A stretch of DNA of 55,575 nucleotides from a virus: IMG/VR virus record IMGVR_UViG_3300001765_000143; one strand, written 5' to 3'. How positions within the stretch are numbered: the first letter of the stretch is position 1; every line of letters starts with the position of its first letter. The notes below the pieces were generated by a model. It was not told the DNA's origin. It ran no database searches and was given only the letters and a program-made list of their open reading frames with translations. Position numbers and translations under genes: made by a program. Of this stretch, positions 3,883-28,234 are shown in pieces.

Positions 3883-4743
3883 ATGTTATATTTCGATAGA
3901 GTATGTAGGGTTATCATTGAGGGTGCTAAGCTGATCACCATTGAAAACGCTAAGATACAATTTGAGATTATAAAATCAAAGAATGCCAAGGAAAATACGG
4001 CAAAGCTTGAGATTTATAACCTTGCTCCTGTAACCCGCAAGCTAATTACCGAGCAAGAAGCCTTAGTTAGAATCTTTGCAGGTTATGCTCAAAATAAGGG
4101 TCTAATAGAAATAGGACAGGGCGATATCTCTAAGATAAAGCATAACAGAGACAAGACTGAGGTGGTTACTGAGATCTACATGGCTGAGGGCTTGAGAATA
4201 TTTAGAGATAACCCCATAAGTATTAGTTTTTCAAGCGAGTCTAAACTTAAACTCGCAGATGTATTAGATACCATACGAACAAAAAGTAATAATAAATATA
4301 GTTTTAGACTCATAGATGTTGATGAGAGCAAGACTATTGAGAACGGCTATTCTGACCTCGGGTCTCTTGATCAAATACTTAATAATTTAGCTATCCAATT
4401 TGGATTTGGGTGGTCGGTACAGAATAAGATTATTACTATCAAGGGAACTAAGAAATCGCTTAGCTCTGAAATTATGTTACTCACTCCTAAAAATGGCTTA
4501 ATCCTTCACCCAGAATCTGTAAAACAAGTCTCTAGGAGGCTGGAAAAATCCAGTATTACTAAACAAGAGCGGAAGATAAACTCGGTGCAGGCATTACTAC
4601 AACCTCATTTACAAGTTCATGATATTATCGCTATCCAAAGTCAAGACTTGAACGGAAAGTACGAGATACAGAAAATAACTCATAAGGGTGATACTAGAGG
4701 TAATGATTGGTATAGCGACATGGAAGTAATCTCATTGAATTAA
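3883..4743 (+). CDS. Baseplate hub-like protein (XkdQ / late-control-D-like)
   Basis: N-terminal pattern CRVIIEGAKLITIENAKIQFEIIKSKNAKENTAKLEIYNLAPVTRKLI...VRIFAGYAQN is typical of hub proteins; position before the spike. Confidence 0.5.
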   Translation: MLYFDRVCRVIIEGAKLITIENAKIQFEIIKSKNAKENTAKLEIYNLAPVTRKLITEQEALVRIFAGYAQNKGLIEIGQGDISKIKHNRDKTEVVTEIYMAEGLRIFRDNPISISFSSESKLKLADVLDTIRTKSNNKYSFRLIDVDESKTIENGYSDLGSLDQILNNLAIQFGFGWSVQNKIITIKGTKKSLSSEIMLLTPKNGLILHPESVKQVSRRLEKSSITKQERKINSVQALLQPHLQVHDIIAIQSQDLNGKYEIQKITHKGDTRGNDWYSDMEVISLN

Positions 4744-8618: not shown

Positions 8619-10184
8619 ATGGCAGGAAAACAAATTACTGAATTAGAAAGCACTAATAAGATTTCAGAAGGAGATCTGTTATTCGTCAGAAAAACAACTA
8701 GCGGTACGGATAAGAAGATTAACTATACTGACCTTGTCGAAAGTATCGGTAATCCCGCAATAGATGGTTTTGTAGCAATAGTAGATCCACTTAATGCTAA
8801 TACAATAATTTTAACACCTGCCAATAATGCCAGGATACCTCGTTACTTTGTCGGCATGAAAATATCCTTTGTCTCGCCTATTACAAGTACCGGGAATGTC
8901 AAAATAAAAGTAGGTAGTTTGACGGCTAAAGATTTTGTCCAGTATCAAACTACCTCAACAGTAATTTTAGGTATAAATGATTATGTAGAGGGAGTATTTA
9001 TTACTGATAAATTTCATCGGATTAACGATCTTCGCTCTGTAGCTAATATTTATTCAAATGAATATAACGTAATATTAACAACAATAGATCCTAGCAACCA
9101 ATTTACTATCCTAAATTTAGTTTCTTCTATCGGTATCCCAAAACAATCTTATTACGATGGAATGGCTATCTCTTTCATTACTCCCGAGAATACCAAGGGA
9201 GTTACTCTAATACATATAGACGGTATACCTGGGACAAAGACTATTTTTGAACCAGATCTAGAAGATTTTATTAGTTTACCGCTTTACGCTAATCAAATTG
9301 TCCGAGCAATATATAAAACTGCGCAAGGCGGATTTATAAGAGATAATTTCCAAACCAATGATCCGACTGTTACAATTCCTATTGTTCCAAGTATTGATAA
9401 TCCAGATGAGCCTTATATTCCTCCACAAAATATTTTTCAGTTTAACGTTGGCGCAAATGAAAAGTTTAAAAATTTAGCTGAAGCCGTGACGAATTTAACT
9501 AAGGAGTTTGGTAAAGATGGAGGAGGTAGACAAGTTACGCTGTTAATTAAAGATACTCTCACAAAAACAAGCGCATTGATAATTTCAAATAGGAAACTAG
9601 GTTGGATAACTTTAAGAGGTGATAATAATATTATTAATTTTGATTTGATAACATATAGTACAAGCAGCAATTATATTGGTGTAGAGGGTGCTTCTGAATG
9701 TTTTAATATAGCAGAAAATACTATAGTTACTTGTAAAAACTTCCCTAGCAACGTAACTTTTATTCACTTATCCAGTCAGTCATCTTGGAGATTAAACAAT
9801 GTAACTTTTAAAAACACTGATTTTACCCCTCGTAGATTGTTTACAGTCGGTAATTCTGACTTGGAGTTTAAAAATTGTGTTATCGAGGGCGGTACAGAAG
9901 TTATGCATATCACCAGTAGTGCAAAAGTGTTATTAGATGCTTGTGTTATTAAATCGTATCAGACGAGAGCCTTATATATTGACGCAGGTTCAACTGTTAC
10001 TATAAACAATTGCGACTTATCCTCTAACGGAACTTCTGCTGCAACAAATATCAATATAGGCACTTCATTTTCAAAAGTAGATCAATATAATTCGAAAGCA
10101 AAATCAAATTATGCACCAAATACAGGTGAAAGTAATGGGATGTTTTATAGAGTAACTGGTTCTCAGGACATACAAGGAGGTTAA
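8619..10184 (+). CDS. Tail fibre / receptor-binding protein with probable parallel beta-helix C-terminal region
   Basis: 521 aa. The C-terminal part has repetitive N/C/T-rich strands (NVTFKNTDF..., CVIEGGTEVMHITSSAKVLLDACVIKSYQTRALYIDAGSTVTINNCDLSSNG). Confidence 0.55.
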   Translation: MAGKQITELESTNKISEGDLLFVRKTTSGTDKKINYTDLVESIGNPAIDGFVAIVDPLNANTIILTPANNARIPRYFVGMKISFVSPITSTGNVKIKVGSLTAKDFVQYQTTSTVILGINDYVEGVFITDKFHRINDLRSVANIYSNEYNVILTTIDPSNQFTILNLVSSIGIPKQSYYDGMAISFITPENTKGVTLIHIDGIPGTKTIFEPDLEDFISLPLYANQIVRAIYKTAQGGFIRDNFQTNDPTVTIPIVPSIDNPDEPYIPPQNIFQFNVGANEKFKNLAEAVTNLTKEFGKDGGGRQVTLLIKDTLTKTSALIISNRKLGWITLRGDNNIINFDLITYSTSSNYIGVEGASECFNIAENTIVTCKNFPSNVTFIHLSSQSSWRLNNVTFKNTDFTPRRLFTVGNSDLEFKNCVIEGGTEVMHITSSAKVLLDACVIKSYQTRALYIDAGSTVTINNCDLSSNGTSAATNINIGTSFSKVDQYNSKAKSNYAPNTGESNGMFYRVTGSQDIQGG

Positions 10185-10206
10185 TACCTAATATAACAGT
10201 CTCCAG

Positions 10207-10235
10207 TTGACTTGAGCTGTTGGCTTTGGTACAAT
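10207..10235 (+). promoter_or_regulatory. Sigma70-like promoter TTGACT-17-(TGg)TACAAT
   Basis: ttgact at 10207-10212, 17-nt spacer, TG at 10227-10228, tacaat at 10230-10235. Confidence 0.45.
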
Positions 10236-10242
10236 AGCAATA

Positions 10243-10405
10243 CAAAAGTGCTTCAAAACACTGTAACTAGAGGTCTCTATTTTAAGCCCATATAAAATAC
10301 TATTTATGTTGGGAGTCCGTTAATATACAACAGTGCTTGCATGAAGTTGACGGGCGTACCTCTAGTACGTTTTGAAACTCCCAACACCAAGTATATATAT
10401 GGCGT
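10243..10405 (+). ncRNA. Structured ~160-nt leader or sRNA with mutually exclusive helices and a CCA-tailed 10-bp stem
   Basis: actagaggt (10266-10274) pairs with acctctagt (10358-10366). tgttgggagt (10307-10316) pairs with actcccaaca (10377-10386), followed by cca. Internal stems are 10317-10324/10346-10353 and 10355-10359/10365-10369. Confidence 0.3.
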
Positions 10406-10618
10406 ATGAGATTCATTAAGTTTACTATAGTTTTCCTTTTTTTCATTATTGGGTATTTGGCTCATGTGTTGTCAAAACTAGAAACTGATCACGTACATGA
10501 AATAGCTTTAACTTTCATAGCTATAGGTTCAATGTTAGCTGGAGGAGTTAATCTTTTAGGCTCTTTAAAAGAAGACAAAAATGATGTTATCGAAAGCGGC
10601 GATGATGCTTCGATTTAG
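10406..10618 (+). CDS. Small two-TM membrane protein (holin candidate)
   Basis: 70 aa, two hydrophobic helices, acidic C-terminus KEDKNDVIESGDDASI; no clear SD. Confidence 0.35.
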   Translation: MRFIKFTIVFLFFIIGYLAHVLSKLETDHVHEIALTFIAIGSMLAGGVNLLGSLKEDKNDVIESGDDASI

Positions 10619-10668
10619 TATCTAGGGTATTAACAACTCTACTCATTAATAAAATAATAGATGAATCA

Positions 10669-10980
10669 CTAATCTTTCTTGAAGTAAGATTTTATAATAT
10701 TTGCAAATAGCGCAATAAACGATAAAGATAAAATAAATATTACAGTTTGCGTATCTAAAACATTCAGCACAACAATTATTTTATGTAACCAGCATATTAC
10801 TCCATCAAAAATAATACGGTATATAGAAGAAGATATAATAACTATCAAAAATAGCAGACACAATATGGAATAAGCAATGGATATCAAATCTTTAGTATGA
10901 TTTAATCCACTGATCCTTGCATTTCTTCTTATTGAGTTTTTCTGTTCCTCCATAGTATTTTTGTCAAATTCATTTTCCAT
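10669..10980 (-). CDS. Membrane protein co-transcribed with the ImmA-like peptidase
   Basis: 103 aa, about 3 hydrophobic segments; starts 3 nt after the peptidase stop. Confidence 0.5.
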   Translation of the reverse strand: MENEFDKNTMEEQKNSIRRNARISGLNHTKDLISIAYSILCLLFLIVIISSSIYRIIFDGVICWLHKIIVVLNVLDTQTVIFILSLSFIALFANIIKSYFKKD

Positions 10981-10982
10981 AG

Positions 10983-11471
10983 CTATTCAATTGCTAAACC
11001 TAAATTAATTAATCTAACATTAATCGCTATCTCAGAGACAAAAAAATACTCCGCAAGCTTTTTTATTTGCCTTAATTCATTGTATTTTTTTACAAAATAT
11101 GTTTTAGGCATTAACAGCTCAGCAGCAAAAGCATTAGCTTCTACTTCTTTTTGGTCTAACAAGTAATTATTACGTTCTAAAATTTTTCCCTCTTTGTCCA
11201 AAAAGTCTTTATGATGATAATAATGTCCTAATTCATGAGCTACAGTAAATCGTTTTCTTGTTGGAGCATGTGATGTATTGACTTGTATAAAGTACTTACC
11301 ATTTTCTAAAAATATATTGCCGCTTTCATCGTCATTCATTTGGTAATAAGACGCCTCTATACCCAAAATAGAACAAATTGTGCCGACTGGAACGGGATAA
11401 GTATCAGCTACTTCGTTAAGAGCTGTACAATTGTATCTTTCCTTTAATTGTCTTAGACTTAAATTTTCCAT
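10983..11471 (-). CDS. ImmA/IrrE-family (DUF955) zinc metallopeptidase
   Basis: HEXXH motif in RKRFTVAHELGHYYHH. I prefer the ATG at 11471 (MENLSLRQL...) because the TTG at 11510 lies inside the predicted promoter. Confidence 0.75.
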   Translation of the reverse strand: MENLSLRQLKERYNCTALNEVADTYPVPVGTICSILGIEASYYQMNDDESGNIFLENGKYFIQVNTSHAPTRKRFTVAHELGHYYHHKDFLDKEGKILERNNYLLDQKEVEANAFAAELLMPKTYFVKKYNELRQIKKLAEYFFVSEIAINVRLINLGLAIE

Positions 11472-11499
11472 ATTCCTATTTAGTTCATATTCTTTATCT

Positions 11500-11527
11500 A
11501 TTCTAAACAATAAAAGCGTCTAGTCAA
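11500..11527 (-). promoter_or_regulatory. Sigma70-like promoter TTGACT-16-TAGAAT (minus strand)
   Basis: Reverse complement: ttgact = 11527-11522, tagaat = 11505-11500. Confidence 0.4.
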
Positions 11528-11633: not shown

Positions 11634-11906
11634 CTATGTGTCTCTATTATTTAATGCGTGCCTATAGAGAGTGTACTGCTGTTTAAAGAGATAAAGGTCA
11701 TTTAACCACTTATTGGTATTAGGGCATTTTTCATTATTGCAAACTTGAGCTAGTTCGTCAGCTACTTTCACGCCTGCTATAGGCATTTCTGGCAAATTAT
11801 ACAGAGCAGTATAGCTACAAGCCGTTTTTGCGCATCCGCTCAAGATTACCATCAAAATCAGTAGGCTTGGTATCTTTCGTAATTTCGATAATTTTGTTCT
11901 GAACAT
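11634..11906 (-). CDS. Lipoprotein, o-spanin candidate
   Basis: Lipobox LILMVILSGC; the start is embedded in a different frame in the 3' end of the upstream coiled-coil TM gene (92-nt overlap). Confidence 0.5.
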   Translation of the reverse strand: MFRTKLSKLRKIPSLLILMVILSGCAKTACSYTALYNLPEMPIAGVKVADELAQVCNNEKCPNTNKWLNDLYLFKQQYTLYRHALNNRDT

Positions 11907-12063
11907 CTATCACCTTTTTTGTTTCATTAAGCCTATTTTCGGCAATTAAGTTTTTAGCTTCTAAATCCTTGTTTTTTTTAAATAAATATATTCCTATAAA
12001 GCTTATGATTCCTAGCATTAAAGGCTTTAAATTAGTTTGAAAAAACTGTATAATAAACAACAT
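11815..12063 (-). CDS. N-terminal TM plus coiled-coil protein, i-spanin candidate
   Basis: Start at ATG 12063 gives MLFIIQFFQTNLKPLMLGIISFIGIYLFKKNKDLEAKNLIAENRLNETKK...; overlapped architecture with the lipoprotein gene. Confidence 0.45.
   Translation of the reverse strand: MLFIIQFFQTNLKPLMLGIISFIGIYLFKKNKDLEAKNLIAENRLNETKKVIDVQNKIIEITKDTKPTDFDGNLERMRKNGL
12026..12054 (+). promoter_or_regulatory. Possible promoter TTTAAA-17-TATAAT for the endolysin
   Basis: tataat at 12049-12054, tttaaa at 12026-12031. Confidence 0.25.
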
Positions 12064-12086
12064 AAATAATCCATTTAAAAGTCTAC

Positions 12087-12539
12087 ATGAATATATCACA
12101 AAAAGGACTTGAATTCATTAAGAAATACGAAGGTTTCCAAGCAAAGCCTTACCTTTGTCCAGCTGGTAAACTAACAATTGGGTATGGTCACGCTATATCA
12201 CCTCGTGAACGCTTTAATAGCCCAATCACCGAAAAGGATGCAGATAGAATTATCGGGAATGACCTTAAAATTACCGAGACTACTATTGCAAAGGGAGTAA
12301 CTGTACCATTGACCCAAGGTCAATACGATGCGTTGGTAAGTTTGGTATATAATTGGGGAGGCGGTAATTTCCTCAGGAGCTTAGGGTTAAAATGTTTGAA
12401 TAATAGCGATTATACAAGAGCTGCCGAGGAGTTTTTTAGTAAAGAAAACGGTGTTGTTAGAGTTGGTGGCAAGATATTAACAGGCTTAGTTAAAAGACGA
12501 CAAGCAGAATTTCTATTATGGAGCGGTGATCATGAGTAA
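12087..12539 (+). CDS. Endolysin, GH24 (T4/lambda-type lysozyme)
   Basis: GLEFIKKYEGFQAKPYLCPAGKLTIGYGH...LTQGQYDALVSLVYNWG...RRQAEFLLW. Confidence 0.85.
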   Translation: MNISQKGLEFIKKYEGFQAKPYLCPAGKLTIGYGHAISPRERFNSPITEKDADRIIGNDLKITETTIAKGVTVPLTQGQYDALVSLVYNWGGGNFLRSLGLKCLNNSDYTRAAEEFFSKENGVVRVGGKILTGLVKRRQAEFLLWSGDHE

Positions 12540-17442: not shown

Positions 17443-18432
17443 TCAACCTTTTTTAAAAATATTTTGTCTATGATATTCTAAATAATCGGAACGCTTTTTG
17501 TGTTCTTGTAATTTGTATTGTTTATCAGGAATAAGACTCAGCCTTTTTGTATTTAATGGTGATAAATAAGGTGAAACCGATATTTGACCATTATTTGAAA
17601 ATGCTATAAAACCTTGATCAAAAAGTCTATCGTAAGTCGGCGTCAAAAGAAGCCCATTGCGGTGATCAACACGCTCATCGTCGTTTTCACAAACTGCCCA
17701 TGGTTTAATATGGCTTGCAATTAACATTCTTTCATCATTTACTCTTGTAATCAAGCATTCACTCATTTCATCAATAAGATTTGCACGATACTTTCCTTGC
17801 CCTTTGCGAGCATAAATAATGTCTTTCTTTTCGTCTTCTTGGATGCTTGTATCTAGCTCAATTTCTTTTTCCTTTTCCGCTATAATTGCGCTATGGTGTC
17901 TTGAATCAAAAAAGTAATTCAAGTAGGGTTTAAAGTAAAAAACTTCTTTGTTTTCGATATTTTTGAGTTTTAGAATTGAAATATAAGTAATTTCTGGCAG
18001 TGCAATTTGACGGAATTCGTTGTAAAAAATGTCTCTGGGAGTAGACGTAATATAAAATCTTGCGGCTCCGCCAGCTTTTGACTCATTAAACTTAAAAAAT
18101 AAGAAATCATCTTTTTTGGCTTCAATTGTTTTTTTATTTTCAAGCCAAAAATCTGCAATACTATTACGATATGCTTGTTCTTGATTTTCATATTCAAATT
18201 TTGCATCTTGCAAATATTCAAGTAAGTCTCTTTTGAGCAAAAACCCACTCATTGTAGACTTGCTAAAAAACGATTGGCTTTCCATGTTTTTTCTTGAGCC
18301 AACATACAGTTTTGCTTCTCCATTTCCACTACCGAGTTTATTTCTTTTAACAAAACAATCAGGTATAGCAATACTGTCTATTGTATCAATGTTGATGTAT
18401 TTTTGCCCTAAGAGGGTGATTTCATTTAGCAT
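17443..18432 (-). CDS. HNH-family restriction endonuclease (type II R-M partner)
   Basis: C-terminal motif ARKGQGKYRANLIDEMSECLITRVNDERMLIASHIKPW...HRNGLLLTPTYDRLFDQGFIAF; overlaps the methyltransferase 3' end. Confidence 0.7.
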   Translation of the reverse strand: MLNEITLLGQKYINIDTIDSIAIPDCFVKRNKLGSGNGEAKLYVGSRKNMESQSFFSKSTMSGFLLKRDLLEYLQDAKFEYENQEQAYRNSIADFWLENKKTIEAKKDDFLFFKFNESKAGGAARFYITSTPRDIFYNEFRQIALPEITYISILKLKNIENKEVFYFKPYLNYFFDSRHHSAIIAEKEKEIELDTSIQEDEKKDIIYARKGQGKYRANLIDEMSECLITRVNDERMLIASHIKPWAVCENDDERVDHRNGLLLTPTYDRLFDQGFIAFSNNGQISVSPYLSPLNTKRLSLIPDKQYKLQEHKKRSDYLEYHRQNIFKKG

Positions 18433-19477
18433 AAATAGATTTCAATATATTCACTAATACATCAACAACAATAGTATTGCCAGCTTGTTTGTATGCTTGT
18501 GTATCGCTTACAACTATTTTAAAATTATCACTAAAACCCATTAATCGCAAACATTCTCTAGGTGTCAGCTTTCGCAATCTATCTCCCCTTGTAATATAAT
18601 TATCAACTCCTGCCCTGTGCATTTTTGCCATTGTTGAAAGAAGCGGTCTTGCCACTTCTAAGTCTGTTTCAGGTTTTGAATAAAAATCTCCAGTTCCACT
18701 TGATAAAACATATTTTTTCACTTTTTCGGATAAAAAGTATTTATCCATTACAAAATCACCATGCCAATTAAATTGCTGATTCCTCTTTTGACACAATGCA
18801 ATCTTGCCGTCAATTTGAGTATATTTCTTGTTTAGATTTTTTTCGTTACTTACAAATTTTATACCCTTTTCAGGTAGAAAATACTTTACATCGGGATTGT
18901 CAATAAGTAAATCTTGCATCGTGATTTCAAGTGGTATTGGCTTCGGAAAATCAAAATTTTGCTTCTTTAAAAATCCAACAACAAAAAGCCTTTCACGATT
19001 TTGTGGTATGCCATAGTCTCGTGCATTTAAAACTTGTTTGTAATATTTATAACCAAGTTTTTTTATACGATTCTCAATAATTTCCCAAGTTTTTCCGCTA
19101 TTGTGCGAGAGCAAACCTTTTACATTTTCAAATATAAAAATCTTTGGCTTGATTTCATCAACCAACCGTGCAAATTCAAAAAATAAATTTCCTCTGTCAT
19201 CATCAAGACCTTTTCTTTTTCCAACCATTGAAAATGACTGACAAGGACTTCCTCCAACGAATAAATCTACATTTCCATTGTATTCTTTGCCGTCAATTGT
19301 TTTTATGTCGTTATACCATTGATTTTCATTTATTTTAAAATTTGCAAAATACGTCTGCTTGCAGTATTTATCAATATCGCAAGCAAAGACAATATTATGT
19401 TCAATGTCTAAACGTTGTAGTGCATGTTCTATACTTCCTATTCCACTAAAAACTGTTGCAATATTGATTTTATTCAT
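18422..19477 (-). CDS. DNA (cytosine-5) methyltransferase
   Basis: Motif I ATVFSGIGS, motif IV GGSPCQSFS, ENVKGL, QNRERLF, C-terminal GNTIVV. Confidence 0.9.
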   Translation of the reverse strand: MNKINIATVFSGIGSIEHALQRLDIEHNIVFACDIDKYCKQTYFANFKINENQWYNDIKTIDGKEYNGNVDLFVGGSPCQSFSMVGKRKGLDDDRGNLFFEFARLVDEIKPKIFIFENVKGLLSHNSGKTWEIIENRIKKLGYKYYKQVLNARDYGIPQNRERLFVVGFLKKQNFDFPKPIPLEITMQDLLIDNPDVKYFLPEKGIKFVSNEKNLNKKYTQIDGKIALCQKRNQQFNWHGDFVMDKYFLSEKVKKYVLSSGTGDFYSKPETDLEVARPLLSTMAKMHRAGVDNYITRGDRLRKLTPRECLRLMGFSDNFKIVVSDTQAYKQAGNTIVVDVLVNILKSIYAK

Positions 19478-19842
19478 ACCGCAACCGCTAAACTTTCCTT
19501 ATAAGTCAATCTTTTACCAAAAGCATTTGCAACAATTTCAACTGCTCTACTTACGTCATTCAATTCCCTTCTGTTATATCTAAAGTCAAATTCACACAAA
19601 TAACGTTTTAAATGCTGAGATTTGCACTGCTGATAAATACCTCTCATTCCACGGTTGAATAAACCAAAGTAACCCTCAATTGTGTTAGTATAAATATAGC
19701 CATCTTTTACGTATTTCTTAGCAGAGTGCATTACAAATTCGTGAGTTTTAACTCTTTTGGCATTCCTTGATAACAAGTTGCTTCGTTCTGTTATCAAGTT
19801 TGTTTCTCTAATAATTAACTCAAAATTGTACTTCCTGTTCAT
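19474..19842 (-). pseudogene. C-terminal fragment of an IS1595 (ISXO2-like) transposase, translationally overlapping the methyltransferase start
   Basis: YTNTIEGYFGLFNRGMRGIYQQCKSQHLKRYLCEFDFRYNRR...GKRLTYKE. Only ~122 aa, and the N-terminal zinc-ribbon/DDE part is absent. ATGA overlap at 19474-19477. Confidence 0.7.
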
Positions 19843-20039
19843 GCTGCCTCTATTTTATGCAATACTAATTGCACTAATTTAATGTTTTTATCACGTTCTT
19901 TGCAATATTTTTTATGGCTTACATATTCATATATGGCACAAACGCATAATATTGTAAACATTGTACCTATAATTATTAATCCAGTTATCATTTTTTTACA
20001 CCTACATTCACTTAATTTGGTAACAATAATAAAATTCAA
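19839..20039 (-). CDS. Small membrane protein
   Basis: One TM segment (MITGLIIIGTMFTILCVCAIY); the real start is possibly the internal ATG. Confidence 0.35.
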   Translation of the reverse strand: MNFIIVTKLSECRCKKMITGLIIIGTMFTILCVCAIYEYVSHKKYCKERDKNIKLVQLVLHKIEAA

Positions 20040-20316
20040 GGAGCTTGATTATTACTCCCGTCATTATTCCGTATAATAAAATTGAAAAACTCGTGCTATA
20101 AAAACCTAAAGATTGCTTAAGATCAATAATTCTACCCATTATTTCAAAAAATAATCCCAACATAGTAAAACTAATACAAGAGCTAATTACCGTTATTGCC
20201 AACCAGTTATACAAGTTAAATTTTTTAGAAAGTTCTACTCTTAAGCCACTCTCTGGAAAATTAGACTCTATATATATAATTAGTTCTGTTTTTGTGGTAA
20301 TACAATTCTTATTCAT
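20008..20316 (-). CDS. Small membrane protein
   Basis: 102 aa with 2-3 hydrophobic segments; ATGA overlap with recT. Confidence 0.45.
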   Translation of the reverse strand: MNKNCITTKTELIIYIESNFPESGLRVELSKKFNLYNWLAITVISSCISFTMLGLFFEIMGRIIDLKQSLGFYSTSFSILLYGIMTGVIIKLLEFYYCYQIK

Positions 20317-21146
20317 GCCACCTCTATTTTATCCGAGTATGAATATTGCGAGTTGATATGGTTAATACAAGACTCTATCTTACTATTATCTAGTTCATTA
20401 ATCGAAGAAACACCGGCTTTAGAACACCATTTGCTAATAATATCATCTGAAATGTTATGAGTAACCACTAATTCTGTAAGTTCTTGTAGTTTTTCAGGAT
20501 TTGCCTTTTCAACTGGTATAACCACCTCTTTAACCTCCTGAACTTGATCGTTGATTAATTCATCTAATTTAGCACTCAAAGTTTGAGCTTTCGGGGTTAC
20601 GTCACGAACAGAGGCTTGGACATCTTCTATTTCTTCAACCATGTGCATACCGTTTAAAACTTCAGGTGCATGTGTTCTAATAAGTAGGGTGGCCGCTCTG
20701 TATCTAAGCATTAATTCTGGCAAAGTTCTATATTTAGGGTTCTTAGTCCAATTTTCTGCCGTAGCCTCTTTCATACCGATAGTGTAGGATATTTCCTCAC
20801 CAGTTTTCTTTAAATTAGTATAAGCCGTGACTTTTAAAGAATTGTCAGAGCCTTCTATCCTATATCTAATACCACCCTCAAACAAACCACTGCTATTTGC
20901 CAGCGATATTGCAAAACTACTATTCATTCCTAGCTTACCGCTAACAACAAACGTGTTTTGCATTATCATCATAGGATCTAAATTCATTCTATAAGCTGTT
21001 TGTACAGCGATAAAAGCATTTTCAGGTCTTCCTCTATAGTGGGAAGGAACAATATCTGATTTAGCCATAATACAGGCAAATTTATAGGCTTTGTCCATGC
21101 AGTCAAACATATCCATTGACGTTGCACTTGAAACTATATTACTCAT
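20313..21146 (-). CDS. recT: RecT/Redbeta-superfamily single-strand annealing protein
   Basis: IMAKSDIVPSHYRGRPENAFIAVQTAYRMNLDPMMIMQNTFVVSGKLGMNSSF...WTKNPKYRTLPELMLRYRAATLLIRTHAPEVLNGM; SD aggagg upstream. Confidence 0.75.
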   Translation of the reverse strand: MSNIVSSATSMDMFDCMDKAYKFACIMAKSDIVPSHYRGRPENAFIAVQTAYRMNLDPMMIMQNTFVVSGKLGMNSSFAISLANSSGLFEGGIRYRIEGSDNSLKVTAYTNLKKTGEEISYTIGMKEATAENWTKNPKYRTLPELMLRYRAATLLIRTHAPEVLNGMHMVEEIEDVQASVRDVTPKAQTLSAKLDELINDQVQEVKEVVIPVEKANPEKLQELTELVVTHNISDDIISKWCSKAGVSSINELDNSKIESCINHINSQYSYSDKIEVA

Positions 21147-21169
21147 TTTATCCTCCTTTAATTATCTAA

Positions 21170-21350
21170 AATTATCCAGTCGTTTGCTAATACTTCTTCA
21201 TCAGAAAATGACTCACCCCACCATGCTTCACCGTTATGTACCTCAACATCATATAATTCTACTAGACGCTTTATCAAGATGATACTCAGAAATAGATGAT
21301 TGCCTTCTTATCTTTTTACCATTCTTAAGAGCTGTTAAAGCCTGCTCAAA
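21170..21350 (-). repeat. Arm A of a near-identical inverted repeat (partner 36626-36814)
   Basis: The reverse complement aligns with 36626-36814 with 2 substitutions seen and one 8-nt gap (ccttgaga absent here). Confidence 0.9.
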
Positions 21351-21554
21351 AGTGTGTAGTTTAGGTTCTTCTCGGTATATTTCCCAATCGTCAGCTAACA
21401 TATCAGAAAAAGTTATGACACATTGTACTCTTGACTCATCTAATACTGTGTCATCGCCATAGGGATATTTTTTATAATACTTTCCTTCACGCCAACGACT
21501 TAACCTAATTTTTTTGCCCTCAAGCAATAATTTGACAGCTTCTATAAAATTCAT
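21249..21554 (-). CDS. DUF2829-like (Tad2-like) protein, truncated paralogue of 36431-36841
   Basis: MNFIEAVKLLLEGKKIRLSRW...DDWEIY...FEQALTALKNGKKIRRQSSISEYHLDKASSRII*. The 8-nt deletion shifts the frame, and homology continues out of frame to 21170. Confidence 0.6.
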   Translation of the reverse strand: MNFIEAVKLLLEGKKIRLSRWREGKYYKKYPYGDDTVLDESRVQCVITFSDMLADDWEIYREEPKLHTFEQALTALKNGKKIRRQSSISEYHLDKASSRII

Positions 21555-21739
21555 AGCGTTAATTCTCCATAATTAATTACATAATCTATCGCTCTACACA
21601 CTTCTGTTCTATAATCGCTATCACTATTTTGAACAAGTTTAGAGTTTATAGAACTACACCTAAATAACATCCCTTGCTCGTCATATTGATTAACTTTATA
21701 ATAACCAGCTTCTTTTTCTACTTTATAACTTTTGATCAT
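21551..21739 (-). CDS. Hypothetical protein
   Basis: 62-aa ORF, ATGA-type overlap with the downstream gene. Confidence 0.4.
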   Translation of the reverse strand: MIKSYKVEKEAGYYKVNQYDEQGMLFRCSSINSKLVQNSDSDYRTEVCRAIDYVINYGELTL

Positions 21740-21753
21740 TTTAGTTATCTCAC

Positions 21754-21999
21754 TTAATTATTTTGTTCAAAAAAGTAAGTTATTGGAACTTTCAAGTACT
21801 GGGCGAAATCAAATAACCTACCGCTAGAAATTCTATTTGTATTTTTTTCATATTTTTGTATTTGCTGAGTACTAACGCCTGCAAAGTTTGCTAAAGATGC
21901 TTGGCTAATACCAAGCTCTAACCTTTTGGCTCTTAGGTTTTTGCTTACCAAAATATCTATTTTAGTTGCTCTACTTTTTCTTATTTTAGTTAACGTCAT
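21754..21999 (-). CDS. XRE-family helix-turn-helix regulator
   Basis: LRAKRLELGISQASLANFAGVSTQQIQKYEKNTNRISSGRLFDFAQYL. Confidence 0.8.
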   Translation of the reverse strand: MTLTKIRKSRATKIDILVSKNLRAKRLELGISQASLANFAGVSTQQIQKYEKNTNRISSGRLFDFAQYLKVPITYFFEQNN

Positions 22000-22013
22000 A
22001 ATTGCCTTCTGCC

Positions 22014-22292
22014 TTATTTAATTAAAAACATTCTTGATCCTTCTTTCTCCTGCACATATTGCTGGTAGATATCCTTATGCTCCTGTTTTAGCCTTTTAGT
22101 ATCAAAGGACGATCTAGGAGCTGTATTCTTCCAAGTAGCAACTACGCATCCGTTATTATCAAGTAGTATATCGTAGTCCTGCATAAACTCTTGAATATCA
22201 ACCTTTAGTGCATCAATTGCCTTTTGGATACTACTCTCTTGCTCTCTTAACGTTTTTAGCTCGTATATTTTGAGTAATAGTTTCGCTAGCAG
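22014..22292 (-). pseudogene. C-terminal segment of the YqaJ-type exonuclease, lying in the +1 frame
   Basis: Hand translation LLAKLLLKIYELKTLREQESSIQKAIDALKVDIQEFMQDYDILLDNNGCVVATWKNTAPRSSFDTKRLKQEHKDIYQQYVQEKEGSRMFLIK*; no start codon of its own. Confidence 0.55.
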
Positions 22293-22938
22293 TTAGTTCC
22301 TTATGATTACCAACAGGAAACAAATTAAACGTATCGGCTAAACTAGTACATTTTGGCGGTATTCGCTTCTCAACGTGGTTATACCAGAAGTTACAGGCTA
22401 TCTTAATTAGCTTATCCTCAAACTCCTTGTTTCTCTCATACGTATAAATTCTAAAATCCTGTCCACCAATCAGAACAGCAATATCTACTTTTGGCACATC
22501 ACAAATACTTGCATACCAAGCCGACTGGATTAAATAACTTTCTGGGAGTTGGTCTGTCCCCTCTTCGCCCCAGTCTTTGGATTTCATAAAATGAGCTGTT
22601 TTACATTCTAAGATATATTCACGATTACCTACCCACCGATCTATATTGCCAGCCATAAATGGATATTTAGGATGACGAATTAAGTTAGGCTCTGTTGTTA
22701 CTTCTACATTATGTTCTTCTGCATATCTTTCTGCTATATTTTCTTCTAGTTTTGCTCCCCAATAAGCAGCTTCATAATTATGATCATCTTTAGTTAACTC
22801 GGTAATCTCTGGATTTACTTTAGAAAAATACACATCAAGGGCGGTTTTCTTAAAACTAGGTACACCACAAATAGCTGCCATATCAGAACCACCCAAGTAA
22901 GTTTTTCTCTCTCTTAACCATTCTGCTCTATTTTCCAT
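22231..22938 (-). CDS. YqaJ-like (lambda Exo-type, PD-(D/E)XK) recombination exonuclease, main frame
   Basis: WLRERKTYLGGSDMAAICGV...AGNIDRWV...ILECKT; pairs with recT. Confidence 0.8.
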   Translation of the reverse strand: MENRAEWLRERKTYLGGSDMAAICGVPSFKKTALDVYFSKVNPEITELTKDDHNYEAAYWGAKLEENIAERYAEEHNVEVTTEPNLIRHPKYPFMAGNIDRWVGNREYILECKTAHFMKSKDWGEEGTDQLPESYLIQSAWYASICDVPKVDIAVLIGGQDFRIYTYERNKEFEDKLIKIACNFWYNHVEKRIPPKCTSLADTFNLFPVGNHKELTASETITQNIRAKNVKRARE

Positions 22939-23119
22939 TTTTTATTACCATTTGTTGTTCAGCTATGCTTGAATCTTTAATGTTGTATTTTTTTATAAAT
23001 ATCGAAATATATCCAGCCGATACGCCAAAGACTTTTGCTATTTGTTTTTGACTCATACCAGACTCATACATACTAGCCACCTTTTCTTTGTCTTTTATAT
23101 TTAATATCGTTCTTTTCAT
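22928..23119 (-). CDS. Small HTH DNA-binding protein
   Basis: ASMYESGMSQKQIAKVFGVSAGYISIFIKKY. Confidence 0.55.
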   Translation of the reverse strand: MKRTILNIKDKEKVASMYESGMSQKQIAKVFGVSAGYISIFIKKYNIKDSSIAEQQMVIKNGK

Positions 23120-23137
23120 AAATCTTTTTTATCCCTG

Positions 23138-23587
23138 CTATTCAGACCTTGTCTTCATATTTAACAAAATTTCATGACCTTTTATTTGATTATCTAAATA
23201 GCGACTAAACTCATTAGTAAACCATTTAACAAACTGTATATGTACCTCATGCCAAGAAGTATGAAATTCATCTATACAATACTTCTCTTTGTTTAAGTTC
23301 TTTTTTAATTCTAGCAAAGCTTGATTAGTCGCTCTTTCGTCAGCAAAATTAAATTTGCCCCTAAGATAAGCTATTGTTTCCATATCTTGCCAAGAAACCC
23401 CAGCTCTTAAAACAATGATATCTTTAATTTCTAGACCTCTTACACCCTTCTGCAATTTCAACAAAAAGAAAAAGTTTACCGATTTTAATTCTTCTTCCGA
23501 AACTAAAATATTTATCTTCTCTTCCATATTAGGAAGGTAGGACTCCCTTATTTGGCTAGTTACTATAAAATTATATTTCTTGCTCAT
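23138..23587 (-). CDS. Hypothetical protein
   Basis: 149-aa ORF in the early operon. Confidence 0.5.
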   Translation of the reverse strand: MSKKYNFIVTSQIRESYLPNMEEKINILVSEEELKSVNFFFLLKLQKGVRGLEIKDIIVLRAGVSWQDMETIAYLRGKFNFADERATNQALLELKKNLNKEKYCIDEFHTSWHEVHIQFVKWFTNEFSRYLDNQIKGHEILLNMKTRSE

Positions 23588-23593
23588 AACTCC

Positions 23594-23896
23594 TCATTTC
23601 TTTTCCGATAAAACAATAGGACAAACTAGTTTGAAACCATCTTCATAACCAGCTCTCATTTCAATTTTAGCACTGAAAGTGATAACTTCTCCAACAATGA
23701 GATTGCCTATTAAATCATATTCCTTGCCTTTACGCTTGCTGAGCCAGAAACGCTCCTTTATCAGCACTCCCTTATCATTTCTTACGTTGTTAAAATATAT
23801 TCTTTTAAATCTCCTTTCGAAATCATACCTATCAAACTGAGCAGTAAAGATTTCTCTTGGTCTTTTTCTTTCTTCTGTTATATTTAGCTCTGTCAT
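23594..23896 (-). CDS. Hypothetical protein sharing a domain with the C-terminus of 30245-31147
   Basis: FTAQFDRYDFERRF...NNVRNDKGVLIKERFW...VGEVITFSAKIEMRAGYEDGFKL versus FFAKFDVIEVQTYERF...SDVRNINQTIYIDHAW...EGDYLCFKARVKKTERGYCL. Confidence 0.5.
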   Translation of the reverse strand: MTELNITEERKRPREIFTAQFDRYDFERRFKRIYFNNVRNDKGVLIKERFWLSKRKGKEYDLIGNLIVGEVITFSAKIEMRAGYEDGFKLVCPIVLSEKK

Positions 23897-23972
23897 ATTT
23901 ACGCCTTAAATAATAAATTTATGATACGAAAAACAATTAATCCCATAGTTGTTTTTCACTTGGTCTGTGCCG

Positions 23973-24941
23973 TTATAGTCTCGAATCGAAATAATCTCGG
24001 TACAGATCATAAGTTTCATTTCTAGCAGAGTGTTTGCAATACTCAATCTCCTGTTGCAGAGCTACTGGATCATACTCACTCAAATCCCAATCTATATTAT
24101 ACTCGCCAGCTTCTGCCAGTAGTTCCTCGTAGGTTTCTACGTCATTCATTAGCTTAAGCCAGTTGGTATAATTTGCGTCATAAGGAATATTGTACTTCTC
24201 AGCAAGTTTAAGCAACTCCTCGCTTCCTTCTGACCCTAGCATAGTATCGTAAACCCTTTGAGACATAATAAGCATCGCCTCTCTCGCACTATCCATATTC
24301 CTTTGCATTTGGATTGCTTGAGTAGGGTTTATTAGTAACTTAACTATCGCCCTATGATTTTCACGATAGGCAGAAGCGAGTGCTGTATCGCCGTCTTTAT
24401 CTTGAGCCGTTATGTCCGCATTATAAGCTAATAGCAGTCTGACAATTTCAGTATGTCCGTTATTAGCTGCAAGCAATAAAGGCGTATGATCCCAGTCGTT
24501 CCTAGCGTTTACATTAGCACCATGCTCTAATAGGAACTTAGTAGCTTCAAGACGACCAGAACCAGCAGCGAACATCAAAGGTGTATCTTCATGCTCATAT
24601 CTAATGTCAACATCAATACCTAAATCTAGTAACCTTTGAATTTCAGCAAAGTTTTTTCTTTCTACAGCGTTCAAGAAGTTATCCGCTGGGGATTGATAAG
24701 TGTTATTTATTTTATACCAGCTATTGATAAGTCCTTGTGCTTTAACCGCACTTTGGAACTCCCAACTTAAAGCAGTTTCGTTCATGTTTTTTAATTCGTA
24801 GTTACATGAACCTATTGTATCACAAATAGCCTCTAATGCCAAAGGATATAAAGCTTTTGAGTTGTTATTTTCTTCGCCGAAATCAGCTAAGTTAGTTATG
24901 TAATTATTTGCTATTATTGGTATTTGTTTTTGAATACTCAT
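23973..24941 (-). CDS. Ankyrin-repeat protein
   Basis: At least 3 consecutive ANK repeats: DTPLMFAAGSGRLEATKFLLEHGANVNARNDWDHTPLLLAANNGHTEIVRLLLAYNADITAQDKDGDTALASAYRENHRAIVKLL. Confidence 0.9.
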   Translation of the reverse strand: MSIQKQIPIIANNYITNLADFGEENNNSKALYPLALEAICDTIGSCNYELKNMNETALSWEFQSAVKAQGLINSWYKINNTYQSPADNFLNAVERKNFAEIQRLLDLGIDVDIRYEHEDTPLMFAAGSGRLEATKFLLEHGANVNARNDWDHTPLLLAANNGHTEIVRLLLAYNADITAQDKDGDTALASAYRENHRAIVKLLINPTQAIQMQRNMDSAREAMLIMSQRVYDTMLGSEGSEELLKLAEKYNIPYDANYTNWLKLMNDVETYEELLAEAGEYNIDWDLSEYDPVALQQEIEYCKHSARNETYDLYRDYFDSRL

Positions 24942-24973
24942 AGTATTACCTCATAAAATTAAGTTATGAGGTG

Positions 24974-25002
24974 AGTTTACTATGGGTGAAATAAAGTGTC
25001 AA
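24974..25002 (-). promoter_or_regulatory. Sigma70-like promoter TTGACA-17-TAAACT (minus strand) upstream of the ankyrin gene
   Basis: Reverse complement: ttgaca = 25002-24997, taaact = 24979-24974. The 13-mer aaagtattgacac is shared with 26412-26424. Confidence 0.4.
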
Positions 25003-25037
25003 TACTTTTCTAATAAAAATATCAACATAACTCGTAA

Positions 25038-25943
25038 TTACTTTTTCAATCTCAGTAATTTTGTTCTTTCTTCTTTAATAAGTTGGATATATTCCTCAAG
25101 AGTCATATCATCAATGCTTTTATTTATTAAATTTTCTCTAAAAGAAACCAAGATTTGATTAAACTCTGCTTCTAACTCATCATAATCAATCTTCAATCGC
25201 GGCTTATCTTCGTTATAAATAAAATAGTTATTGTCATCAGGAATTGTCATTAAAAAAATACTGCTATAAAAATATAACATATCTTCTTTATTTTTTTTTA
25301 AATCACCTATTTTACACCATAAATTTTTTTCTAAACAATTTAGTATTTTTCCCTTTAGTTTCGTTAATTCATCATCAAAAACTTTTTGCATCATATCGTC
25401 TGCAAAATAACAATTTTTAAGTACAGGGCTATTAATTAAAAAACCTTCACATAGACAATAGAGCGATATTGTCTGCCCTTTGTATAAATTAGCTAAACTA
25501 GATCGGTATTCTTTATCAAAATAAGCATCAATATAATAAAACATTTCATTTGTTTCTAAACGAAGATAATATTGCTCACCAATACCTCTATTAATTGATT
25601 CTATTATACCAGTTACAAATAAGAACTGACCTCTATACTTCTCATCAGCTTTTATTTCATTTGCGAAATAATCCGCAAAAAGTTTAGTTGCATTAACATT
25701 TATTGCATTTTCGTTTACAGATGAAGAAAGTATTTTATAAATAAACGTCTCTAGAAGCTCATTTTGTTGATTATTTAATATTATTTTTGTAGATTTACTA
25801 TTAGGCGATAATTCAATTTCAGTTATATTTTTCTTATTAAAACTTGACGAGACAAAGTAAGTATCTAATTTTTTAGATACAAACCATACAAGAATTAAAG
25901 CTATTATAATCGATAATAATAATAGCTTTTTTTTAGTTTGCAT
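25038..25943 (-). CDS. N-terminally anchored protein with OB-fold (tRNA_anti-like) domain, paralogue A
   Basis: TM segment LLLLSIIIALILVWFV; ATKLFADYFANEIKADEKYRGQFLFVTGIIESINRGIGEQYYLRLETNEMFYYIDAYF...GQTISLYCLCEGFLINSPVLKNC. Confidence 0.6.
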   Translation of the reverse strand: MQTKKKLLLLSIIIALILVWFVSKKLDTYFVSSSFNKKNITEIELSPNSKSTKIILNNQQNELLETFIYKILSSSVNENAINVNATKLFADYFANEIKADEKYRGQFLFVTGIIESINRGIGEQYYLRLETNEMFYYIDAYFDKEYRSSLANLYKGQTISLYCLCEGFLINSPVLKNCYFADDMMQKVFDDELTKLKGKILNCLEKNLWCKIGDLKKNKEDMLYFYSSIFLMTIPDDNNYFIYNEDKPRLKIDYDELEAEFNQILVSFRENLINKSIDDMTLEEYIQLIKEERTKLLRLKK

Positions 25944-26082
25944 AATAAGTTACATATTAATTAAGTTTGTTGTTGAAAGCACTTTTTAATTTTGTTGGAT
26001 TTGGTACTAATAAAATGAATATTTTTATTACATGCTAGTACCAGAATATCCGTAGCTATTTTTCTAAATAGCAGATTCATAT

Positions 26083-26379
26083 CTAAATTTGTTTTTTATA
26101 AGATTTTATAATAAAATCTATTTTTTCTTGATTAATTATAAAAACTCCTTTTTGTTGTCGATCTTGTTGAATCACTCCATCTATCATAAATTTATTTAAT
26201 GCTGTATAAATACTTGGTCTCGAAACGCCTGTTTTTTGATTTATTTTTACCACTGGAGTATATACTATATTACCTACAGCAGAATCAACTAATTCGCATA
26301 ACACCTTGCTTTGATTGTCTGTATACATGCCTATAGCAGCAATAGCTTTACTCAACGTTTCTTTATCTATTTTTTTCAT
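26083..26379 (-). CDS. Winged-helix DNA-binding protein (regulator or plasmid maintenance)
   Basis: INQKTGVSRPSIYTALNKFMIDGVIQQDRQQKGVFIIN. Confidence 0.5.
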   Translation of the reverse strand: MKKIDKETLSKAIAAIGMYTDNQSKVLCELVDSAVGNIVYTPVVKINQKTGVSRPSIYTALNKFMIDGVIQQDRQQKGVFIINQEKIDFIIKSYKKQI

Positions 26380-26415
26380 ATTCTAGAATTATTTTTTAAT
26401 TATATAATAAAAGTA

Positions 26416-26444
26416 TTGACACAATGTTTATACTTAGTTAGATT
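26416..26444 (+). promoter_or_regulatory. Orphan promoter-like element TTGACA-17-TAGATT pointing into ~200 bp without an ORF
   Basis: ttgaca at 26416-26421, tagatt at 26439-26444; no ORF longer than 12 codons seen downstream to 26643. Confidence 0.3.
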
Positions 26445-26643
26445 ATAGATAATAATTATATTACATATTTTCAAGACGATTATAATATAATAATTGTCAA
26501 TAGGGAATATTTTATTAGCTGTTTTAAAATGTGAATCGTTTTCAGTGAAAAGTAAGTTTGGTTTTGCTGAATGTGTGTGTGCATAAAGTACTTAGCTTTT
26601 GAGCCATAAATTCAAAAAGCAAGTTCTTGAGCTACTTATAAGA

Positions 26644-26877
26644 TTAAGAGTCTTGTTTGGAGTCGTATATTTCTATTTCTAATCGTGTAAAGAAGTATGC
26701 GAACATCCAATAAGAGAAATAAGGAAATATAATTACTAGTGTTATCAATAAAGCTACTAAAGTGCTAAAATAAGAAAATAAAATCACTAATAATATTGCT
26801 GAAAGAACTGATAAACCTATTGATATTACTAAATATTCACCAAAATGCCCTGTAAAAACAATTTTTCCTTCTTTCAT
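26644..26877 (-). CDS. Small membrane protein
   Basis: 77 aa, 2-3 hydrophobic helices. Confidence 0.45.
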   Translation of the reverse strand: MKEGKIVFTGHFGEYLVISIGLSVLSAILLVILFSYFSTLVALLITLVIIFPYFSYWMFAYFFTRLEIEIYDSKQDS

Positions 26878-27076
26878 AAAATCTCAACTTAATATTAGTT
26901 ATGTATCATTTAGTTAAGGTATAAAATTTTTATATATAAAAAAACTAAAAATTCTAAATAGCACTAATTAAAATTGATTGCTGTTACTTTTATGTTTCCT
27001 TATTTTTGTTACTGGATGTTTAAGTGTTTTTTTACAAGATTTAGAGATAGAAATATATGACTAAAAAATAAGAGCG

Positions 27077-27089
27077 GCATATATATGTT
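27077..27089. repeat. GCATATATATGTT box, copy at the 3' end of the par operon
   Basis: Exact 13-mer shared with 28015-28027 and 28121-28133. Confidence 0.7.
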
Positions 27090-27337: not shown

Positions 27338-27341
27338 AATT

Positions 27342-27986: not shown

Positions 27987-28005
27987 ATTATTAAATATTT
28001 AATTT

Positions 28006-28027
28006 AACATATAAGCATATATATGTT
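28006..28027. repeat. Box copy with a partial inverted partner (aacatata-a-gcatatatatgtt)
   Basis: Read directly, 20 nt upstream of the parA start. Confidence 0.6.
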
Positions 28028-28120
28028 ATATATAATAGTGTAGCATATATTTATAAAAAAAGCTAGTGATAGCCTTGATCCAAGAGGATTTTTATATATA
28101 CAATGAGCTTAGATGGTTAT

Positions 28121-28148: not shown

Positions 28149-28234
28149 AAGACGCGTGACTATAACTGTATTAGTACATTTCTAATATTTTACCTGCTTA
28201 TAAAAATTATTTGCACATCGTTTATCATTATAAG

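Follow-up and report, generated by a model that had tools for sequence, protein, structure and literature searches.

A divergent sRNA-Xcc1-type RNA with a c4-style leader in a tailed-phage genome

Within the viral DNA recorded as IMGVR_UViG_3300001765_000143 (55,575 nucleotides (nt), here called the window), 221 nt separate the end of a tail-fibre-like gene (10184) from the start of an open reading frame (ORF) of 70 amino acids (aa) at 10406, and this interval holds a whole promoter-leader-RNA element. Judged by its full-length model match and its covariation, the RNA is a divergent, AT-rich, sub-threshold member of the Rfam family sRNA-Xcc1 (sRNA, small RNA). We consider it rather probable that the region constitutes a same-strand antisense RNA module of the type known from the c4 RNA of phage P1, exerting type-specific feedback on its operon. 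The RNA is taken to be real and under selection, and its output at the window locus is what we infer. New here is an AT-rich sRNA-Xcc1 RNA below the family threshold that has a c4-style leader and lacks a target at a ribosome-binding site.

The RNA, its fold and its leader

Using Rfam covariance models in E-value mode, sRNA-Xcc1 (RF02221) was the sole family matched in the whole window. The match extends over positions 10308-10393 and over the complete model (1-87 of 87) with 42.2 bits, at E values of 6.7e-6 in a search of 901 nt and 4.1e-4 when the whole window was compared with all 4227 families; a relative, L003 (related loci are referred to by L numbers), obtains 43.4 bits against the same model. 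The closing stem of RF02221 is the helix that a preliminary description, made from the letters of this DNA, had called (b), and the two inner arms of the model are the nested stems listed there as (c), which places in an existing family a structure previously left unclassified. The family was first recognised in Xanthomonas campestris, as an 88-nt sRNA from an integron cassette, a discrete species with ends mapped by Northern blot and rapid amplification of cDNA ends (PMC2996969). The window RNA resembles it in the full-length model match, the three-way junction with a closing stem of 9-10 base pairs (bp), the AUACAA and GAA elements and the R-CC-A/C tail that is found at the 3' ends of the family, and differs from it in a replaced apical P2 hairpin, an AT-rich sequence and a score under the cut-off. 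BLAST searches with the element against phage and plasmid collections gave no match, or noise. A published EDL933 coordinate for sRNA-Xcc1 was set aside, being the hok/sok locus in the RefSeq record and not the RNA sought.

Viral contigs were scanned for the family consensus core ATACAANACCCGNAAGGGGAA, and at least 120 stretches matched (L037-L156); among the core-matching loci tested, 17 of 18 exceed Rfam's own cut-off for RF02221. An alignment of 75 sequences, comprising 71 RNAs from core-matching loci, the window RNA and three relatives, was used to build a covariance model, R1, against which the window RNA, itself part of the training set, reaches 59 bits. Over the 75 sequences the three-way junction is 83.2% paired, compared with 67.4% in shuffles, and shows a covariation of 0.417, compared with 0.167 in shuffles and at most 0.118 for slid partners. 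Helix P1, the closing stem, is 91.5% paired with double changes at seven of its nine pairs, and both P2 and P3 covary. No variation occurs in the columns of AUACAA and of the AA in GAA. The apical P2 hairpin is GUG/CAU in the window lineage and CCC/GGG (ACCCG-AAGGGG) in the family, meaning that both bases of each of the three pairs have been replaced without loss of pairing. The minimum-free-energy fold of 10242-10405 has -43.8 kcal/mol (z = -3.1), more stable than each of 200 shuffles. The helices named (a), (b) and (c) in the preliminary description are all present where it had drawn them, and the paired segments are conserved in relatives with compensatory changes.

The 9-10-bp acceptor-like stem followed by A-CCA had also raised the idea of a sequence derived from transfer RNA (tRNA), either a degenerate tRNA gene or a phage attachment-site (attP) core taken from the 3' end of a host tRNA. 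We regard this origin as scarcely credible: ARAGORN finds 0 tRNA or transfer-messenger RNA genes in the window, an Rfam E-value scan of 9900-10800 returned sRNA-Xcc1 and two chance-level matches (E = 2.9), none of them a tRNA, and the neighbouring ORFs scanned against Pfam gave no integrase family match. Moreover, the RNA folds into a three-way junction bearing the AUACAA...GAA loop peculiar to the family, and the same tail is a feature of the sRNA-Xcc1 family that is present in c4 as well. The tRNA-like character of the stem and CCA is nevertheless genuine, and the sequence reproduces the mature ends annotated for c4 of phage P1. For c4, the precursor is documented to be tRNA-like in structure and to be cut by RNase P (PMC3858429, citing Hartmann et al. 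1995), which explains these features.

The leader contains two sites complementary to the RNA. They are designated a1 and b1, and their partners a' and b', following the nomenclature of phage P1 (Table 1). The a1:a' pairing, which had escaped the preliminary description, is 96.4% paired in 16 leader-plus-RNA sequences with compensatory changes at six of seven pairs, and its covariation of 0.76 stands against 0.17 for shuffled sequences and no more than 0.20 for slid controls. Helix (a), that is b1:b', consists of nine Watson-Crick pairs out of nine in the window; across five sequences of the window type its paired fraction is 97.7%, and three of the nine pairs show compensatory double changes. 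Its leader and RNA strands are, respectively, ACUAGAGGU and ACCUCUAGU in the window, CUGUGGGU and ACCCACAG in L001 and L166, CUAGGGGU and ACCCCUAG in L002, and ACUGGGG and CCCCAGU in L003. Taken jointly, the two leader helices are 98.8% paired in the five window-type sequences, against at most 47% in slid controls. The stem of the leader hairpin is 92.4% paired with double changes at two of five pairs, and all five helices together are 96.8% paired (16 sequences in both cases). Helix (a) crosses P1 and competes with the P3 hairpin, making the earlier suggestion of a pseudoknot or a two-state switch a fair description.

Table 1. Positions of the promoter, leader, RNA and downstream gene in the window
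Feature	Position	Strand	Sequence or structure	Remarks
Putative sigma-70-type promoter	10207-10235	+	-35 TTGACT (10207-12), 17-nt spacer, extended -10 TGgTACAAT (10227-35)	
Leader hairpin	10247-10262	+	Stem AGUG/CACU, loop CUUCAAAA	Displays a1
a1 site	10252-10259	+	UUCAAAAC	Complementary to a' (10369-76)
b1 site	10266-10274	+	ACUAGAGGU	Complementary to b' (10358-66); 5' arm of helix (a)
Possible enclosing helix P0, 5' arm	10286-10294	+		May pair with 10396-10405 just 5' of the start codon; seen in the minimum-free-energy fold only
sRNA-Xcc1-type three-way-junction RNA	10307-10389 (~83 nt)	+		Rfam RF02221 match; covariation over 75 sequences
P1, 5' strand	10307-10316	+	UGUUGGGAGU	Pairs with 10377-10386; helix (b)
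P2 arm	10317-10353	+	Stem CCGUUAA/UUGACGG (10317-23/10347-53); AUACAA (10325-30); apical hairpin GUG-CUUG-CAU (10333-42); GAA (10343-45)	
P3 hairpin	10354-10370	+	GCGUAC-CUCUA-GUACGU; stem 10354-59/10365-70	Loop and adjacent stem bases form b' (10358-10366)
a' element	10369-10376	+	GUUUUGAA	Covers the final 2 nt of the P3 3' strand plus the junction from P3 to P1; directly next to the P1 3' strand
P1, 3' strand, and CCA	10377-10389	+	ACUCCCAACA (10377-86), then CCA (10387-89)	tRNA-style reading: stem, discriminator A10386, CCA
70-aa ORF	10406-10618	+	Two hydrophobic segments and an acidic tail (by eye); invariant HVHEI motif	First gene 3' of the RNA

In an all-against-all duplex calculation, the best partner of a leader was its own RNA in 14 of the 16 cases. 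One exception is L033 (597-783), where the a1 UUUAACC mismatches the RNA of the same locus (UUGAUGAAA) but fits that of L030; this locus looks like a recombinant in which leader and RNA no longer correspond. Sequence comparison can be taken to have established the fold of the RNA, its two pairings with the leader and how rapidly they co-vary among relatives.

The promoter at 10207-10235 had been ranked among the best matches in the window. It is present and its position is conserved, but it is not special as a match: it scores 10/12 against the consensus and the region has 53 promoter-like sites where shuffles lead one to expect 50.9, so that the consensus match alone means little. In relatives the promoter keeps its position although the rest of the upstream flank is unalignable, with an invariant -35 TTGACT and a -10 of TACAAT, TAGAAT or TAGAGT; position and hexamers are conserved in L001-L003 and L160-L166, and a second lineage, with longer operons, has TTGAAC-17-TAAATT at the same place. 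Transcription is predicted to start near 10242. We found no terminator 3' of the RNA element and no clear intrinsic terminator in the window leader. The transcript most likely runs on into the 70-aa ORF, and the discrete RNA of ~160 nt first envisaged was not confirmed.

Likeness to c4 and the layout of ordinary sRNA-Xcc1 loci

In the record of phage P1, a single strand carries in order two promoters, a1 (48255-61), b1 (48269-76), the 77-nt C4 RNA (48343-48419), a2, b2, icd (222 nt) and ant1/ant2, and a2 and b2 are annotated as repressing icd/ant translation. It is known that c4 blocks translation at the ribosome-binding site and sets the heteroimmunity of P1 and P7 (PMC12197685, PMC8198154). 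Reading the P1 sequence against the Rfam C4 and c4-a1b1 models, we assigned b' to UCACUAAC, in the second hairpin's loop, and a' to CUGUCAA, in the junction; the c4-a1b1 model has a1 in a hairpin loop. The mature C4 starts at a G after a U and ends in ...CCUGCC-A-CC, that is, stem-A-CC.

The window element has the same build. On one strand follow a promoter, a1 in a hairpin loop, b1 after a gap of 6 nt (7 nt in phage P1) and an RNA of ~80 nt closed by a long stem, with two inner hairpins of which the second carries b' in its loop; a' occupies the junction beside the 3' strand of the closing stem. The predicted ends of the RNA, at the step from U10307 to G10308 and at ...AAC-A10386-CC-A after a 9-bp stem, match those annotated for P1 c4, and a small ORF comes first downstream in both (icd, 222 nt, in P1; the 70-aa ORF in the window). 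The window RNA differs from c4 in its larger first inner arm, which carries the AUACAA...GAA loop, and the locus has neither a2/b2 over the ribosome-binding site of the next gene nor a following antirepressor.

Among the matches listed, 97 unique viral loci with ordinary sRNA-Xcc1 were searched for stretches of 7 nt or more exactly complementary to the P3 loop or the junction of the RNA, in the cognate flanks and in the flanks of other loci. The P3 loop finds a complement upstream in 77/97 cognate and 46/467 non-cognate cases and downstream in 68/97 and 44/467; for the junction the corresponding counts are 61/97 and 32/467 upstream, and 54/97 and 41/467 downstream. On both flanks the junction site is located 5' of the loop site (48 of 51 upstream, 34 of 36 downstream). 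Of the 68 downstream loop sites, 54 touch a Shine-Dalgarno (SD)-like motif, the start codon following ~9 nt later, and at least 55 of the 93 distinct first downstream ORFs have antirepressor-type domains (Bro-N 14, KilA-N 13, P22_AR_N 8, AntA 7, ORF6N 7, Rha 6). By these counts, ordinary sRNA-Xcc1 loci carry a2/b2 copies over the ribosome-binding site of the next gene, usually an antirepressor. The window is unlike these typical members in having neither.

A full ordinary layout, as in L045, L039 and L044, reads promoter, leader hairpin with a1, b1, RNA, small hairpin, a2/b2 over the SD motif and antirepressor gene; in seven example loci a hairpin and U-run resembling an intrinsic terminator were seen by eye between b1 and the RNA. 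In agreement with the antirepressor-type neighbours, a published note on APSE phages places sRNA-Xcc1 upstream of an ORF6N protein. The same counts extend another note, according to which it stands upstream of the toxin gene symE in the commonest integron cassette of Xanthomonas (bioRxiv 10.1101/2025.06.18.660453). The literature that we found treats sRNA-Xcc1 as a trans-acting, loosely virulence-linked sRNA annotated in many genomes, with no stated mechanism, and in the literature searched we did not find its c4-like layout stated. Tandem sRNA-Xcc1 units with different loops, ~380-530 nt apart, are present in L107 (8261-8343 and 8643-8724) and L101 (two copies 534 nt apart), and a genomic island of Xylella fastidiosa has five tandem copies at a spacing of ~380 nt (PMC12189769). 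Such tandem copies may be arrays of different specificity types.

Two other phage RNAs invite comparison. IsrK of the Salmonella prophage Gifsy-1 combines, as experiments have shown, a leader whose pairing in cis silences translation with a short leader RNA that activates in trans (PMC4825925). Like IsrK (RF01394), the window element comprises an operon leader able to pair in cis with a downstream part of its own transcript, and it differs in giving no isrK match and in having no clear intrinsic terminator in the leader. The isrK model also matches the a1b1-plus-terminator leader 5' of P1 c4 (L159, 231-312) with 35.1 bits, under its cut-off of 50, and on this match the IsrK and c4 systems are related; it suggests that Salmonella IsrK might be the leader half of a c4-type module. 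The RNA sar is transcribed from the strand opposite its target, and hence needs no separate recognition elements, no leader copy and no tRNA-like processing signal. In phage P22, this small RNA pairs at the translation start and in this way keeps antirepressor synthesis down (PMC12197685).

Several observations weigh against a c4-type module in the window. The score of 42.2 bits falls short of the RF02221 gathering cut-off (53 bits), and a scan in gathering mode returned no family match at all; no C4, c4-a1b1 or isrK model matched positions 9900-10800 at E <= 10, and R1 gives P1 c4 just 8.4 bits. The gene 3' of the window RNA is not an antirepressor. No covarying a2/b2 could be detected downstream of the RNA, either in the window family or in the second lineage, and the downstream sequence stays constant while a' and b' change, being identical (UAACUAACUAGGUGUUAC..CAUG) in loci with five different a' sequences. 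Finally, a duplex scan assigns -21.1 kcal/mol to the leader duplex, which is weaker than the -28.8 kcal/mol of a site at ~45011-45048 on the minus strand. This last site is a stretch of at least 14 nt (CGUGCUAGAGGUGC and flank) complementary to the P3 hairpin and junction and lies antisense inside a 747-aa ORF; it is probably fortuitous.

Since the window matches neither the C4, c4-a1b1 nor isrK models and R1 scores c4 so low, homology with c4 is not shown, and the likeness is one of design, not of detectable sequence. On phage P1 itself the C4 and c4-a1b1 models score 68.8 and 51 bits, and Rfam has C4 (RF01695) and c4-a1b1 (RF03163) in clan CL00128 and sRNA-Xcc1 in no clan. Because no covarying a2/b2 follows the RNA, the canonical action of c4, masking the ribosome-binding site of the next gene, is unavailable here. 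Exact and one-mismatch searches of the 55-kb window revealed no second paired a-plus-b site, and an exact ACTAGAGGT at 4693-4701 has no a-site beside it. Given the absence of both kinds of site, the RNA has no detectable partner other than its own leader.

The 70-aa gene and rival explanations

The 70-aa ORF belongs to a family of 45 protein clusters with 65-100% identity, known from metagenomes only, and has no Pfam, PHROG or PADLOC match. It has no SD motif; the argument once drawn from this, that its expression depends on the leader, is weak, as an SD-like motif precedes just 30 of the 63 window ORFs inspected. Window-type loci (L001-L003, L011-L014, L160-L166) have the same promoter, leader and RNA directly before it. 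In L005, a close relative with a tail fibre 88% identical, the whole RNA-plus-ORF unit is missing and the tail fibre is followed by a small hydrophobic ORF and an endolysin, judged as such by its similarity to the GH108 endolysin of L166. In L166 the unit is followed by a second small hydrophobic ORF (membrane character by eye) and then by that endolysin. On this comparison of gene orders the unit is an insert that parts the tail fibre from the lysis genes. The ORF had been put forward as a holin candidate, and it does lie near lysis genes. The evidence is positional only, however: the unit is absent from L005, no family match exists and the synteny is ambiguous, with another small hydrophobic ORF directly before the endolysin in both L166 and L005, and the assignment was rejected.

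At ten further loci, weaker copies of the RNA (12.9-25 bits with R1, filters off) are located 250-640 nt 5' of homologues of the 70-aa ORF, and one or two small unannotated ORFs stand between the two. The RNA thus looks like the head of an operon that ends in the 70-aa gene, and the window type like a deletion derivative in which the 3' end of the RNA was joined ~20 nt before the start codon. The junction UAUAUAG.G..G.AUAUG before the 70-aa ORF is common to the window type and to loci where other ORFs precede it. An upstream sequence of some homologues, "type C", had been considered as a different leader RNA and was discarded, as it is a 72-aa ORF with the RNA farther upstream. In the longer-operon lineage (L020, L021, L025 and others), the RNA is immediately preceded by a sequence (AACCUAGUU) complementary to the SD region that immediately follows it (AACUAGGUG), and the CACC tail of the RNA can pair with GGUG of this SD region. 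By one pairing or the other, the ribosome-binding site of the first ORF could be masked; as these sequences hardly differ between loci, there is no covariation to support either.

With the 70-aa ORF beginning merely 16 nt past the CCA tail, the element might instead be a purely cis-acting structured 5' untranslated region, leader and junction forming one domain that sets translation of the ORF while no RNA is released. This is compatible with the minimum-free-energy fold, which encloses the junction in a helix reaching -1 to -10 of the start codon, with the finding of no second a'/b' target in the window and with the partly cis-acting leader of IsrK (PMC4825925). The enclosing helix P0 and the CACC/GGUG hairpin over the SD motif in the second lineage are plausible, consisting of nearly invariant sequences and hence lacking covariation evidence; the P0 arm is AU-rich and its comparative support not convincing. 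We consider a solely cis-acting region unlikely, since in Xanthomonas the RNA of this family exists as a separate 88-nt molecule whose ends have been mapped (PMC2996969) and the tRNA-like ends found here equal those of processed c4. In addition, the fast coordinated turnover of both elements, the preference for the cognate partner in 14 of 16 cases and the chimeric L033 fit selection on intermolecular specificity, and the ten relatives with one or two ORFs between RNA and 70-aa ORF indicate that the RNA is not a dedicated leader of this gene.

The resemblance of the window type to a deletion derivative, with the junction sequence that it shares with longer operons, and the absence of a2/b2 could also mean that a deletion removed the a2/b2 target together with the first downstream genes, leaving a c4-like RNA that is now a functionless orphan. 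Such a remnant seems improbable to us. The longer operons also have no covarying a2/b2, yet their a1:a' remains paired through at least nine different sequence pairs, and in the window type the fold and both pairings have been kept through compensatory changes. Promoter, leader and RNA are also nearly identical in six independent metagenome contigs. The persistence of the pairings and the near identity of these contigs point to purifying selection and not to decay.

Given that the protein is small with two hydrophobic segments, that symE follows sRNA-Xcc1 in the most widespread Xanthomonas integron cassette (bioRxiv 10.1101/2025.06.18.660453) and that in P1 the gene nearest downstream of c4 is icd, a cell-division inhibitor, a pair resembling type I toxin-antitoxin systems was considered, in which the 70-aa membrane protein would be the toxin and the upstream RNA an antitoxin repressing its translation. 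We hold this for still less probable than a decayed remnant: the ORF is without a match in PADLOC, PHROGs or Pfam, and no covarying complementarity between RNA and ORF was found, the sole 7-nt match (UCAAAAC, 10472-78) being in conserved SKLE codons and lost where a' differs. The wider sequence at 10472-10482 (UCAAAACUAGA) resembles a fused a-plus-b site. Its a-part recurs in L003 and is not complementary in L001 and L002, whose a' differs, and the resemblance is most likely a by-product of the conserved codons.

Proposed action, genomic setting and implications

In the c4-type module that we favour, RNase P would cut the RNA from the transcript between U10307 and G10308, as the tRNA-like stem-A-CCA end and the c4 precedent suggest, and the predicted mature species would extend from about 10308 to 10388/9 (~82 nt). 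The uncut transcript could adopt two states, one with the leader hairpin and a closed junction including P3, the other with the leader paired to a' and b', P3 opened and P1 crossed, which would be a pseudoknot if P1 is kept. Free RNA would pair in trans with the leaders of new transcripts of the same type. The leader pairing might act by changing processing or folding around the start codon, and its likely output would be type-specific feedback on the operon and hence on the 70-aa membrane protein, whose expression it might turn up or down.

The window is a tailed-phage genome, AT-rich with 33% G+C, encoding terminase, portal and baseplate proteins, a lysozyme, ParA, an ankyrin-repeat protein, a YqaJ recombinase and a C5-methylase with an HNH partner. 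A homologue of the 70-aa ORF is present on a contig of Candidatus Megaera venefica (L158), and this contig, the ankyrin gene and the base composition indicate that the host is probably a Rickettsiales endosymbiont. An accessory cluster at 17443-29453 comprises the HNH endonuclease beside the C5 cytosine methylase, the YqaJ recombinase, the ankyrin-repeat protein and the ParA ATPase, which is flanked by two paralogous proteins with a tRNA_anti-like oligonucleotide-binding (OB) fold. ParA suggests a plasmid-prophage lifestyle as in P1.

Downstream of the 70-aa ORF and convergent with it, the minus strand at 10669-11510 encodes an M78/ImmA-like metallopeptidase (best PADLOC match CapP, E 4e-31), followed by a 103-aa hydrophobic protein, also convergent (membrane character by eye); there is no helix-turn-helix partner next to them. 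Two overlapping small minus-strand ORFs at 11634-12539 look by eye like a spanin pair, one having a lipoprotein-type signal (LSGC) and the other two PHROG matches of unknown function only. They face the plus-strand phage lysozyme gene, a divergent order that is unusual for lysis genes.

A wider proposal, which we offer as a tentative and rather doubtful one, is that the whole sRNA-Xcc1 family is a second, hitherto unrecognised clade of c4-type immunity RNAs, and that in the window lineage, from phages of Rickettsiales-like endosymbionts, the copy at the ribosome-binding site was lost, the RNA working only through its own leader as a self-addressed switch. If this were true, each member would have a fast-evolving two-part "address", formed by junction and loop and copied in its own leader, in a family spanning at least 120 viral stretches, the symE integron cassettes and the tandem Xylella arrays. 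The switch would control, in a type-specific way, an operon with a small and possibly lytic or toxic membrane protein at its end, or would bring about exclusion between related phages.

As a lead, the c4-like architecture seen across sRNA-Xcc1 is more general than the window element. The build and placement of the family suggest a testable role for it: repressing the translation of antirepressors and other harmful genes, while the leader serves as a decoy. The window variant, keeping only the leader copy, offers a natural experiment on what the long-puzzling a1/b1 sites do alone. The pairing sequences differ in almost every relative and yet stay matched, which suggests an RNA-based specificity code between related phages, whose hosts would be intracellular bacteria of protists, where phage regulation is almost unknown.

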